A stretch of DNA of 64,000 nucleotides from an uncultured delta proteobacterium. GTDB lineage: Bacteria; Desulfobacterota; Desulfuromonadia; Desulfuromonadales; DDH964. The stretch spans positions 16,360 to 80,359 of the forward strand of contig CAWDZB010000022.1 of assembly GCA_963806685.1 (NCBI GenBank), read 5' to 3'. This document shows, piece by piece, positions 1 to 5,309 of this stretch. The notes under the pieces are model-generated. The model searched no databases. It was not told the DNA's origin and saw only the letters and a list, made by a program, of their open reading frames with translations. The translations under genes and the position numbers were made by a program. The stretch's first letter is position 1; each line of letters begins with the position of its first letter.

Positions 1-2764
1 AGGTGTTGTCGGCATTATGGTAGAAAACATCTCCAATATATGACGGATCTGAACCATTGACGAAAGTTCCGTCCGGCTGTTTGTCAAAACGGTACTGGTA
101 GTTTCCTGGCATGAGCAGGACAAGCATGTCGCTGTTGCCGCCCCAGCCACCAGTCGTAGCCGAAAAAGGTCCCCTTACCAAAGGCGCCGTACCCGTTGTC
201 CCCGGAGCGATAGGTCCTCTTGATCACCACTGGAATAAGCCCGTCAACCTGATAATCGATCTTTTCGTGAATGAAATAGCCCGTTGCCAGGTTGACCGGT
301 TCGCCAGCCTGGTTGGCGGGCCCACCTCCCCAGCGATTTTTACTGGAATCAGATGAATTAGAGGGTCCTCCACTAGCGGATCCACCAGAGCCAGAGGTTC
401 CGCCGGGCTAGTGGAGCCACCCGAATCGAAAGGGCCACCGGCACCAGAGGGGCTACCAGGGTCAGACTCACTGCCAGAGTCGGAAGAACCACTGGCACCA
501 GAGCCAGGACTGGTGCTCCCGTAGGTTGTCGCGCCGCAGCAAAACTTGGGAATGCCGGTGCCCGGATCGGCGACAATGTATTTGCCGTCCGGCGTGACTG
601 TGCCGGTACCGGCGATGGCCCAGTCGTTGGGGGCCATCCCATCGACTGGGCGACTCGTCGTAATACCAGAGGATGGCCTTTTCGCCAGGAAGCAAGCCGA
701 TGTCATTTCTTGCCTTGACTGGGATGGGGCGGTCGGCAACGCCGCCGCCGACCTTGTCGAAGAAAAACATGTAGACGGTGCGTGCAAAGACCCCCTTCGG
801 GAGGGGTTTGATCGGCAGGCGGTCGGTAGGCACGGTACGCACCGAAACCCGCAAGTTGCGCTTGCCGTCCCAGCCGGTGATGTTGACTCCGGCCGGGATG
901 CGCAATTCGAAACCCGGGACCTCTGAGTCGGTGAGGATGGTGTCGCGCCCCGGATCGATGGTGGCAAAGTTACGGGCCTTTTGCCGGTGGAGATAGGGCT
1001 GGAAAGGTAGGGGATTGACCATGTTGGGGAGGATGTCGACGCTGATCGGTATGGTCGGATAATGACCGCCCGGTTCATTAGCGGTCGAACCGTCCATAAG
1101 CACGACCCGTCGCCCAGCCGGGATGTTGTCAAGCCGAAACTCGCCGTAGCCATTCGTTCGCGTGGAGAGGTTTCCGACCTTGATCGTCACCCCTTCGATC
1201 GAAAACATTTCCGTGTTGAGAATCCGCCCGGTCAGCGAGCCGGTCCCCAGGGAAACGGTCGAGGCTGCGGCACCTTCAGCAGGGACTTCATTGGCGGCGA
1301 CAACCGCCAACGAGGCGCTATTGGAAGTCAGGGTGGTCTCGCCCTTGTTGGTGACGGAAACGAAATAGTTCCCCTCGGTGGCGATGAGGGATGGGGCGAC
1401 CGCGGCCTCCAGCACCGTGCTGCTGACGAACTTCACTTCGAGACGATGTCCGCTGATGCTGAGAGAGGAAGCCGGCATAAAATTCTTCCCCTCGACCCGT
1501 AGGTTGAAGGCCGGCCCGCCGACGGCCACGGTGGCGGGGACGACCGCCCTCACCTGCGGCAGTGGGGTCAGAATCCTGAAGGTCATCTCGTTTGAGGCGC
1601 CCCCTCCCGGAGCAGGGTTGTTGATCTTAACCGAAACTTCCCCGGGAAGCTCGAGGGCACTTGACGGGACGTTAGCTTGAAGCTGCTCATTGTTCTCAAA
1701 AGTTCCGGTGAGGGGTTTATCGCCGAATCGGGTTTCCGAGTCCCGGATAAATTTCGAACCGCTCAGGGAGAGAGAGACGCCATCATCCCCGGCGGTAGCG
1801 TCCTTTAGGAAGGATATCCTTAAGTTCGGGGACGGGGTTTTCCATTTGCACCAAGGCGAGATTGTTGCCATGCCCCACCAGGGCCAGGTTGCGGGCGGGG
1901 TCGACCGCCAGGGGGCCGATCTCCTCGAAAAGGCGCACCGTCTCCACCAGGACGCCCTTGGTCAGGTCGACGATCGCCAGGGTGCCGCCGGCCGCAGCGA
2001 GAAAGGCGGCATGGGTGGAAGGGTTGACGGCGATGACCTCGGGCTGGGTTCATCGGCACGGTGCCGAGAGGTTGCAATGTTTTCCGGTCAATGAGCAACA
2101 ATTCCGGTCGCCCTTTGAGGGTGAGCAGAAGCAGCCCAAGCTCCTCGTCCTGATCCAGGCTGGCCACCTCCCCCTCCAAGGTCACAGCTTATTCACCTGC
2201 CCGGTTGTCGGATCCACGAGCAGCAGGTTGTCGCCTTCCTCATTCCGTGGCCAATAACAGGACTCTTGCCCCGGCAAGATTTTGACGGCCTGGCCTGGGA
2301 TCTCGTGGAACGGCGAAAGCACCCCGTTCACCAATCGATCTCTTCAGCCCGCCGTCCAGGCCCAAGACGGCTTCCTGGCGGTCTTCATCCACCGCCACCT
2401 TATGGACGGCTTCCCCGACCTCGATGGACTTCTTCAGCTCTCCCCTGGCAAGGTCGAACATCCACAGTGAGCCTTGTCGGAAACAACCAGCGCCTGGTTG
2501 CCGCCCCGGTAAACGGCCAGACCCGTCGGTGTTTCCGAAAGCGGCACTTCGGCAGTAATGGCGGCAGAGGCGAGGTCGAGGAGGGTGAGCCTGCTTCCTT
2601 CCCTGCTGACAACGGCAGCGGTGTCGGTGGCGGGGTTGACGCGACAATGGAGGCCTTCGATTCCAGAAAAACCTCCGCGGAGAACCGGTAGTCGTAGCCC
2701 TGTGCCACGGCGCAGAACAGCAGAAGATTGTCAACATCCCCAGAGTTGCGCCTCTGAACCGCAT
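1..2764 (-). pseudogene. Giant exported RHS/YD-type protein, multiply frameshifted, continuing past the left edge: signal peptide, YVTN/YncE-like beta-propeller, 2 IPT/TIG, carboxypeptidase-regulatory-like domain, S/G/P linker, DUF6531-like start
   Basis: Frames joined by hand give MRFRGATLGMLTI/LLLFCAVAQG, then VNPATDTAAVVS...LTLLDLAS, AVNPSTHAAFL...AVDPARNLALV, INNPAPGGGASN, GSLTGRILNTE...TNGYGEFRLDNIPAG, IPKFCCGAT, GEPVNLATGYFIHEKIDY...KRTYRSGD...GAFGKG. At least nine frame changes. Confidence 0.75.
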
Positions 2765-2831
2765 GGTAAAACCCTCCCCTCGCCTTCAAATCCTCTACTG
2801 ACAAAAAAGCCTGCATGTCCCCAAATCATTT

Positions 2832-4118: not shown

Positions 4119-4154
4119 TTTTTCCTCCTTTTCACCTAGATTGAGGGTTTTCCT

Positions 4155-5309
4155 TCATTGGATTTCCACTGAAACCGGATCAGATATAGTTGTTGATGAA
4201 TTATCAATGGGTGTATCTAAGTGGACACTTACCTGGTTGGTCATTTTGATTGTGAAATAACTGGGAGCTGAATCTATATGCACACTCACAGCAGTAGAAA
4301 GACCCGAAAAGAGGCCAGAAGAAGGAGCATCAAGATGAACGCTCACCGGGTAACCAGAGATTTGAGCAGTCCATTCCTGAGGCAAAGGGGGATTCAAAAA
4401 CACACTTACCGGAAGAGAAATAAAGGGCGAGGATCCAACAGAAGGGGTATCAATATGTACACTCACCGGATGCGCAGATGTGGGACATTGACTCTCCTGG
4501 AGCGTTTCTAAGTGGACGCTGACTTTACCTGCTGTGAGACCGGCTACATCCCCCGAAAAGGGCGGTCCAACAATCACTACTGATCGCGGATCTCCAGCAC
4601 TTATCATTGCAACGCCTTCCTGGAGCCCATCTACAGAAAAATTCATCGTGCCGGTACTGGGGATGGTGAGTGTAGAGGGAGCGCTTACAATTGTTGGGTT
4701 ATGGTTATTCAGATTAATTGTCAGTGGGTTACTCAAAGGGGGGTCAATGCTTACAGAAAGGTCCCCACTAGTACCGGGAATTATTGCCAGCTGCCCTGGA
4801 GTGAATTCCAAAGCTGAACTAGAGAGTGTTACATTGCGGCTAGCAGTTCCGTAAGGAGTAATTACCGTAATGGTTGCTCCGCCAGTAGATGACGCAGTCA
4901 TTTCGGCAGTGATTTCGGAATCGGTGACCCATACCCTATTTATATTTACGGTAGGGTTATCTGAAATGATCGAATCGGTAGCGAGAAGATTTTCTCCAGA
5001 AATTCTAACGAGAAGTGTCGAGTCGACAAAAAGAACGTTCGGACTTATACTATTTATAATTGGTGGAGAAGCAACGGTAGTCGAGCTATTGACGGAAACC
5101 AAATTCCCCAATTGGTCATAGTGATATATTGCACCTGAGGTACCTTTGATGACCCGGGTCAACCGGCCAGCATCGTCATAGTGGTAGCTGGCCGAGTCGC
5201 CAAAGGTAGGCTGCGGCCCAATGCAGAACCATAGAAATAATGTGAGTCCTGCAATAGCTGAGCTAGCGATTATTCTCGAACTGGAAGTCAATCTCCCAAA
5301 TCGCCCCAT
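4155..5309 (-). CDS. Exported protein with an N-terminal YD/RHS repeat pair, IPT/TIG-like domain and C-terminal VSVH repeats
   Basis: Hydrophobic leader, YHYDDAGRLTRV...YHYDQLGNLVSV, PIINSISPN...ISGENL...ITVITPYG; RBS GAGGAGG. Confidence 0.8.
   Translation of the reverse strand: MGRFGRLTSSSRIIASSAIAGLTLFLWFCIGPQPTFGDSASYHYDDAGRLTRVIKGTSGAIYHYDQLGNLVSVNSSTTVASPPIINSISPNVLFVDSTLLVRISGENLLATDSIISDNPTVNINRVWVTDSEITAEMTASSTGGATITVITPYGTASRNVTLSSSALEFTPGQLAIIPGTSGDLSVSIDPPLSNPLTINLNNHNPTIVSAPSTLTIPSTGTMNFSVDGLQEGVAMISAGDPRSVVIVGPPFSGDVAGLTAGKVSVHLETLQESQCPTSAHPVSVHIDTPSVGSSPFISLPVSVFLNPPLPQEWTAQISGYPVSVHLDAPSSGLFSGLSTAVSVHIDSAPSYFTIKMTNQVSVHLDTPIDNSSTTISDPVSVEIQ
4158..4527 (-). repeat. Seven degenerate peptide repeats of about 19-21 aa with core [PKAQ]VSVH[LI][DE]
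   Basis: KVSVHLE, PVSVHID, PVSVFLN, PVSVHLD, AVSVHID, QVSVHLD, PVSVEIQ-stop. Confidence 0.85.

Follow-up and report, generated by a model that had tools for sequence, protein, structure and literature searches.

The window analysed here, a stretch of 64,000 nucleotides (nt) from an uncultured delta proteobacterium (GCA_963806685.1, contig CAWDZB010000022.1, positions 16,360 to 80,359, forward strand), carries at its left end three genes encoding a short YD-pair protein (A), a glycine-rich protein (B) and a giant Rhs protein (C), and sequence comparison identifies them as one copy of a widespread, conserved three-gene cassette. The best explanation overall, which we hold with a probability of about 50%, is that of a Sec-type Rhs toxin with two secreted partners, A serving as adaptor and B as stalk or anchor, with the local copy probably broken. 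A and B are apparently an undescribed accessory pair of a known kind of toxin, the Sec-type Rhs toxins that act independently of a type VI secretion system (T6SS); neither the A family, the B family nor a YD-pair adaptor was found described in the literature searched. The local copy of the cassette belongs to an island that was acquired horizontally, and it is broken as assembled.

A sequence-only reading of positions 1–5309 had described three co-oriented, closely spaced genes with N-terminal leaders, and this description held. All three are arranged head to tail on the minus strand, separated by 36 nt (A–B) and 67 nt (B–C), and are preceded by Shine–Dalgarno-like sequences, including a good one ahead of the start of C at 2764. 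Sec-type leaders at the N-termini of A, B and C were recognised by eye from the sequences and homologue alignments. Gene C extends for a further ~2.9 kb to the left of the window and ends at position 13477 of the contig (C22 13477–19123, ~5.6 kb in total).

Homologues of the cassette proved to be syntenic elsewhere, with intact A-B-C cassettes on many unrelated contigs. An indexed protein search returned 21 relatives of A, whose contigs showed the same order with all genes intact (A 316–552 amino acids (aa), B 440–451 aa, C 1840–1880 aa), and the contexts of further B proteins likewise consisted of an A-like gene, B, and then a propeller-DUF6531-RHS giant. We counted gene contexts at 80 B loci, which according to their record titles span at least six major lineages (Nitrospirota, deltaproteobacterial groups, Pseudomonadota, Acidobacteriota, Verrucomicrobiota and Methylomirabilota); 52 of them had an A-like open reading frame (ORF) ahead of B. 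An RHS gene followed downstream on the same strand at 36 loci, with a YD-bearing A-like ORF upstream of B in 24, and six loci had the order C-A-B, all with a YD-bearing A-like ORF. Another giant secreted protein (with Ig, LamG, FG-GAP or CARDB domains) came next at 26 loci, none with a YD-bearing A-like ORF, and the remaining loci (n = 12, eight with such an ORF) had too little flank to judge. The N-terminal YD pair was hence present in 30 of 42 RHS-linked loci, versus 0 of 26 non-RHS loci, a co-occurrence which supports a specific link between the lone YD pair of A and the RHS protein, as had been proposed from the sequence. No fourth conserved gene was found around the cassette in 40 RHS-linked loci, and no transporter, ATPase or outer-membrane barrel. 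The term “secretion system” in the sequence-only reading was therefore overstated, as the surroundings of the cassette hold no conserved membrane, ATPase or outer-membrane component; what is conserved is a toxin with two secreted partners.

From its domains, C is an Rhs polymorphic toxin, predicted to be exported by Sec, with a YD cage, an autoproteolytic core and an exchangeable tip. The order of its parts is leader, beta-propeller, two choice-of-anchor-Z IPT-like repeats (NF058597, E 9.3e-37), a carboxypeptidase-regulatory (TTR-like) domain (a weak match to the CarboxypepD_reg-like PF13620), an unnamed conserved domain of ~200 aa, DUF6531, YD shell, Rhs core and tip. The leader, judged by eye, has a charged n-region, a hydrophobic core and an AxA-type site, both here and in an intact homologue (P0024, 1880 aa, nine RHS-repeat stretches). 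The longest open piece of C is 56% identical to residues 321–723 of P0024, and C's own pieces matched the RHS repeat model PF05593 with E values of 9e-26, 8e-19 and 6e-14. The giant propeller/IPT/DUF6531-RHS protein of the earlier reading is thus present in its domains, though not as one intact gene: it has at least 11 frame changes, and its second part lies outside the window. An RHS core, YD repeats and a toxin tip, for which the left flank had been the suggested place to look, were found there. The Rhs-associated core (TIGR03696, E 6.6e-23, P0144 residues 325–387) ends in DPTGL and is followed by a tip of ~105 aa. Homology to the copy in a second genome of the genus (G001, 80% nucleotide identity) ends at the DPTGL motif, as expected for a polymorphic tip. 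Neither the tip of C in this genome (G000), the tip of C at another locus (L025) nor one small ORF after the C gene of L025 had a Pfam match. Overlapping the end of C is a low-GC ORF for a TPR lipoprotein (C22 12701–13495), the obvious immunity candidate, which had no match to known immunity families.

RHS toxins with signal peptides are a recognised class, whose trafficking is termed 'T2SS' (type II secretion system) by Zhang, Aravind et al. 2012 (PMC3482391). Rhs4 and Rhs5 of Myxococcus xanthus are large, carry a signal peptide and mediate T6SS-independent kin discrimination; they are presumed to be surface-located, by a mechanism that is unknown (PMC10433427). C shares with these Sec-signal toxins, which also include WapA of Bacillus subtilis, the signal peptide, large N-terminal adhesion-type domains and the YD shell, and its Rhs core likewise carries the DPxGL cleavage motif ahead of an exchangeable tip, with a candidate immunity gene behind it. 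Like them, C seems not to need a T6SS. It differs from them in its conserved upstream A/B pair, which was not found reported for them in the literature searched. A second comparison is with bacterial teneurin-like proteins (TLPs), Sec-targeted YD-shell toxins with the order BIg, TTR, TIP, FN-plug, NHL, YD-shell (Raoelijaona et al. 2026, PMC13018210), which occur in Thermodesulfobacteriota, Acidobacteriota and other phyla and for which the authors report 'no obvious delivery machinery' (PMC13018210). Sec targeting, Ig-type and TTR-like domains ahead of the plug and the logic of plug and YD shell are common to both. However, the propeller of TLPs lies between FN-plug and shell, whereas in C it is N-terminal and the plug is DUF6531, and no A/B partners are mentioned in the TLP papers. 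C homologues gave TEN_YD-shell matches, weak ones among them, and P0024 gave no NHL or FN-plug match at E ≤ 0.01 with general models. Owing to the N-terminal propeller and the lack of a teneurin NHL/FN-plug match, C was not filed as a TLP.

Most studied Gram-negative Rhs toxins use a T6SS, and C shares with T6SS Rhs effectors such as RhsA, Tse5 and RhsP a DUF6531-type plug, the YD cage, core autoproteolysis and a polymorphic tip. These effectors, however, lack a signal peptide and come with PAAR or VgrG-binding domains and Eag-type chaperones, whereas in C there is a cleavable Sec leader but neither a PAAR nor a prePAAR. In Tc (ABC) toxins, similarly, an RHS cocoon needs separate proteins to reach its target and a beta-propeller is associated with the cocoon protein, but the translocator TcA is pentameric and alpha-helical, in contrast to the small all-beta A and B, and TcdB mid/N and SpvB were not found. 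As the earlier reading had observed for its own stretch, there was no PAAR or VgrG immediately left of the window; PAAR (PF05488), TssC (PF05943), VgrG (TIGR03361) and TcdB_midN (PF12256) were not found anywhere in this genome, which is 88% complete, and P0024 had no PAAR and no TcdB mid/N or SpvB domains. TssC was present in one of four other carrier genomes and lacking in three, including one deposited as a single chromosome. These absences together with the Sec leader on C make the T6SS and Tc routes unlikely, and it is very improbable that C is delivered by a T6SS or as the BC part of a Tc toxin.

Protein A was confirmed as the short YD-pair, IPT and repeat protein described earlier: an RHS_repeat match at residues 44–75 (E 1.1e-6) is followed by a TIG domain (83–162), a second Ig-like domain and seven VSVHxD repeats. 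The YD pair is found at the same place, right behind the leader, across A proteins from several phyla, and its motif columns are nearly invariant in the alignment of A homologues. In an AlphaFold model the Ig domains had high confidence (predicted local distance difference test (pLDDT) > 90), the YD hairpins, modelled as four short strands, reached 60–70, and the tail (35–55) consisted of isolated low-confidence strands. Such loosely placed hairpins and tail repeats would be expected of elements that become ordered on a partner. The number of tail repeats varies from three to seven among homologues. Several A subfamilies end in tails of short PVSV-type strands, including those at two non-RHS Verrucomicrobia loci (L087, L109), and other subfamilies have an Ig domain at the C-terminus. 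Since tail repeats also occur in non-RHS loci, there is a hint, on weak evidence, that the tail of A may be linked to B or to the envelope, and its YD pair to RHS.

An alternative is that A, B and C are co-regulated but independent surface or adhesion proteins, the YD pair being a remnant of rhs recombination that plays no part in docking. Loci of this kind are recombination hot spots with orphan fragments (e.g. L025 18443–18784), and the co-folding support for an A–B complex given below is weak. A leftover of recombination is nonetheless hard to reconcile with the constant placement of the pair behind the leader in several phyla, with the near-invariance of its motif residues, with the strict confinement of the YD pair to RHS-linked loci and with purifying selection on A, and we regard this alternative as quite improbable.

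Intact relatives of B are 430–470 aa long. Neither Pfam nor NCBIfam models matched B, and neither A nor B matched the PADLOC defence-protein models. A model of a B homologue (pLDDT 89) comprised a right-handed beta-helix (residues 30–290) followed by an Ig-like domain (292–414), which is consistent with the role of stalk or adaptor assigned to B in the sequence-only reading. In a wide structural alignment search, secretion domains of the two-partner secretion (TPS) type ranked first, with HpmA (4w8q) at Z 10.6 (root-mean-square deviation (rmsd) 2.8, 129 residues aligned), HxuA at 9.4 and 9.1, FHA at 8.9, EtpA at 8.5 and HMW1 at 8.3; the rmsd of all TPS matches was 2.7–3.2 over 124–137 aligned residues. 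The C-terminal part of B matched adhesin Ig domains in the same aligner. Foldseek detected no match to B in the PDB at E ≤ 0.001; when PDB sequences were searched with a profile, no hit had an E value below 0.08, and a shape search of the ESM Atlas gave unnamed clusters only.

The B family is large. An exhaustive profile search yielded 9,057, 4,455 and 1,850 clusters (50% identity) at E ≤ 1e-3, 1e-10 and 1e-30, respectively, and an indexed search more than 3,259 proteins, all annotated as 'hypothetical' and free of Pfam domains. At least 468 stretches were confirmed among species-representative genomes from many phyla. The B-type beta-helix unit also occurs as an internal repeat, eight times in a protein of 7437 aa (P0150) and six times in one of 4063 aa (P0187), and these repeats inside giant proteins suggest a structural, stalk-like role. 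Tandem B paralogues, two or three in number, were observed in some genomes (L071 8611–11341; L087 9908–13637). In a cultured isolate, Geothermobacter hydrogeniphilus HR-1 (L078, 9296–20223), a B relative is followed by a 3109-aa LamG/Big/fn3 surface protein, and this possibly tractable organism may allow the role of B to be studied in a non-RHS context.

The structural matches raise a further alternative, in which A and B stay outside the final toxin complex as periplasmic or outer-membrane helpers of export or assembly, with B a free-standing TPS-type helix that engages an Omp85-type or other transporter whose gene lies elsewhere. TPS secretion domains are indeed the best structural matches of B and resemble it in their right-handed beta-helix, their size and their position directly after the Sec leader; B relatives stand ahead of many different giant proteins, of which RHS proteins are just one kind, and helpers would be needed where the delivery machinery is not encoded locally. 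However, B is a free-standing protein of ~440 aa that ends in an Ig-like domain, with no Pfam TPS (Haemagg_act) match or other sequence-level likeness to TPS domains and no TpsB-like neighbour. Furthermore, its helix recurs as repeats in the 4,063- and 7,437-aa proteins, which looks structural and not catalytic, and the presence of a YD pair suggests that A stays in stable contact with the shell. We consider a helper role of A and B unlikely.

We instead favour a toxin with A as adaptor and B as stalk or anchor, for which the following mechanism is proposed. The products of A, B and C would cross the inner membrane by Sec, and the C toxin would work without a type VI system or Tc complex. A would act as adaptor: by beta-sheet extension its two YD hairpins would dock on the RHS shell, while the link to B or to the envelope would be made by its Ig domains and C-terminal strand repeats. 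B, whose relatives also precede other giant surface proteins, would display the giant protein on the cell surface as a stalk, anchor or adhesin, and passage through the outer membrane would depend on machinery encoded elsewhere. The earlier reading had proposed Sec export and co-assembly of the three products; leaders are present on all three, and co-assembly is backed by a weak co-folding pass for A and B, so that physical assembly of A, B and C is something we infer. For mature A and B of one intact cassette, three co-folding runs had a median score of 0.55, as against 0.00 for the best control, and shared at least 17% of contacts with a partner pLDDT of at least 74. The mark for a pass was reached by 58 of 80 solved complexes and by 2 of 110 mismatched pairs, but at scores of 0.60 or below by only seven of those 80 and by both passing mismatches; the A–B run used our own alignments, so that these calibration counts hold only roughly. 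The conserved adjacency of A and B makes the prior for their binding decent.

Several points weigh against this explanation. The A–B pair was the sole co-folding run and its pass was weak; a pass at 0.55 is more likely to be false than true if no good prior backs it. The co-occurrence of the YD pair with RHS genes was counted in related genomes that are not phylogenetically independent, the counts were obtained with a regular-expression motif and with single-linkage clusters joined through Ig domains, and 12 RHS-linked loci had no YD-bearing A, some of them cut by contig ends or frameshifted. The TPS likeness of B is one of fold only, its Z scores of 8–10.6 being only moderately above the level of any beta-helix, and no TpsB or other outer-membrane partner through which a ~200 kDa cage might leave a diderm cell was conserved nearby in the 40 RHS-linked loci.

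The main interest lies in the gene family, less in the damaged local copy. How large Rhs and teneurin-like toxins with signal peptides reach target cells and get into them without a T6SS is an open question in recent papers (PMC13018210, PMC10433427), and an A/B pair that travels with Rhs toxins across several phyla, with its YD element only where an RHS gene is present, provides concrete candidates for the delivery step. A bolder version, which we offer tentatively, is that A and B are the missing presentation or delivery apparatus of diderm Sec-dependent Rhs toxins, with A clipping onto the shell via its two YD repeats and joining B through its Ig domains and strand-repeat tail, and B founding a very large family of beta-helix proteins that serve as general stalks or anchors of giant surface proteins in many phyla. 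The B family, comprising thousands of clusters, unnamed and with a fold predicted at high confidence, is in any case a good target for annotation and structure determination.

As assembled, C is not one continuous ORF. Comparison with P0024 (tblastn) revealed at least 11 frame changes, with the propeller region most broken. For the background rate we compared a sample of 18 × 20 kb of G002, a complete genome of the same genus, with G000 and detected ~7 candidate breaks in ~219 kb of coding sequence, hence the density in the ~5.6 kb of C is ~60 times background. To the right of the tRNA genes, seven conserved genes within ~15 kb gave full-length, single-frame matches to G002, and the ~11 kb of adjoining flank genes contained no frame breaks. 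General assembly noise is thus excluded as the cause of the breaks in C by the low genome background and the clean flanks.

The defect in B is of another type. The glycine-rich body and leader seen earlier are both there, but the protein is interrupted by a TAG stop codon that aligns within the conserved glycine-rich GSGGA stretch of the B family. A reading of TAG as pyrrolysine or another sense codon was ruled out, as no tRNA with this function (CUA anticodon) is encoded in the genome and 490 long ORFs terminate in TAG. The B copy of G001 has two in-frame TAG codons of its own (L014, ~2230–2330, homologous to window 3440–3530), which align with both tyrosines of a YWY motif in an intact homologue (P0023), a few codons from the TAG in G000; these may be assembly error or parallel decay. 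Substitutions between the G000 and G001 copies, which are 80% identical, fall mainly on the third codon position in each of the three genes, and this bias indicates real genes under purifying selection until recently. A relative-rate count in C (129 residue changes unique to G000 versus 70 unique to G001) was set aside, since the G000 count was inflated by out-of-frame stretches at the borders of high-scoring segment pairs.

Whether the local copy has truly decayed was weighed against the possibility that the cassette is intact here, with the frameshifts in C and the TAG in B being local consensus errors, for example in a strain-variable, lower-coverage island of a long-read metagenome-assembled genome (MAG). 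Such islands with rhs genes are strain-variable. G001 comes from a long-read-style MAG series with ~1 indel per kb even in conserved genes, a point against decay which makes local consensus error in C a possibility, and G000 itself has a few frame breaks elsewhere. The codon-position bias shows C under selection until recently, the indels in C fall mostly outside homopolymer runs, and an intact A with a B free of frameshifts would be unexpected if all three genes had decayed together. On the other side stand the density of frame breaks in C, the clean conserved genes adjacent on the same contig, the defect in B, which is a substitution without any indel, and a nearby transposase gene split by another insertion sequence (IS), which is typical of a decaying island. 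An intact cassette obscured by consensus errors is a serious possibility, at a little less than even chances. We lean slightly towards true decay, because IS elements adjoin the cassette and the stop in B is of the substitution type, and the local cassette is probably no longer functional. The positions of the features are given in Table 1.

Table 1 Features of the cassette and of the adjoining tRNA genes, in window coordinates
Feature	Position	Strand	Remarks
Gene A	4155–5309	−	384 aa, intact; Sec leader, YD pair, two Ig/IPT domains, C-terminal repeat tail
YD-repeat pair of A	5085–5192	−	Residues ~40–75, directly after leader; Pfam match
VSVH[LI]D-type repeats of A	4158–4527	−	Seven short beta-strand repeats, ending at the C-terminus
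Gene B	2832–4118	−	Sec leader and Gly-rich; read as 215 aa + TAG + 212 aa
In-frame TAG inside B	3471–3473	−	Read from sequence
Gene C, 5' half	1–2764	−	Leader to DUF6531; Rhs toxin, several frameshifts
Longest open piece of C	471–1961	−	497 aa; two choice-of-anchor-Z PGGG repeats, CarboxypepD_reg-like domain, conserved mid domain
DUF6531 of C (Rhs N-terminal plug-type domain)	132–305	−	Pfam PF20148, E 1.4e-14
tRNA-Glu (UUC)	5852–5929	−	ARAGORN; 3' end towards variable island
tRNA-Lys (UUU)	5987–6062	−	ARAGORN

The earlier description of a tRNA-flanked island was a fair one, and the island is composite. The tRNA-Glu/tRNA-Lys pair and the genes on its far side are kept in all three genomes of the genus (G000, G001 and G002), with different DNA in each on the near side of tRNA-Glu. 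The cassette is missing from G002, and in G001 it stands at the start of another contig. Guanine-cytosine (GC) content across A and B is 0.46–0.51, versus 0.60–0.65 for the contigs of the genome. A direct repeat of the tRNA end, which as an attachment (att) site would show where the island stops on its far side, was not observed. Beyond the TPR lipoprotein ORF to the left of C follow a Mutator-family transposase gene (C22 9690–12576), cut in two by an inserted DUF772/DDE (IS5-like) transposase gene, and then metal-resistance genes (cation efflux, ArsR, thioredoxin-like; C22 1–9560). This metal-resistance block is 90–95% identical to a contig of G001 (C10) and absent from G002; its identity exceeds that of core genes between G000 and G001 (80–88%), which together with the absence from G002 suggests that the block may have been exchanged recently within the genus.

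On the other side of the tRNA genes, a plus-strand ORF of 1455 aa (6070–10437) was rejected as a high-GC shadow frame and is no gene. The true genes beneath it are three on the minus strand (~6130–7422, 7447–8733 and 8782–10440), with 88–90% protein identity to G002, as against only 58–63% for the plus frames, and with indels falling between the genes. Elsewhere in the genome, a tRNA-Sec gene was detected (contig C4, 68125–68220), hence the organism probably makes selenoproteins.

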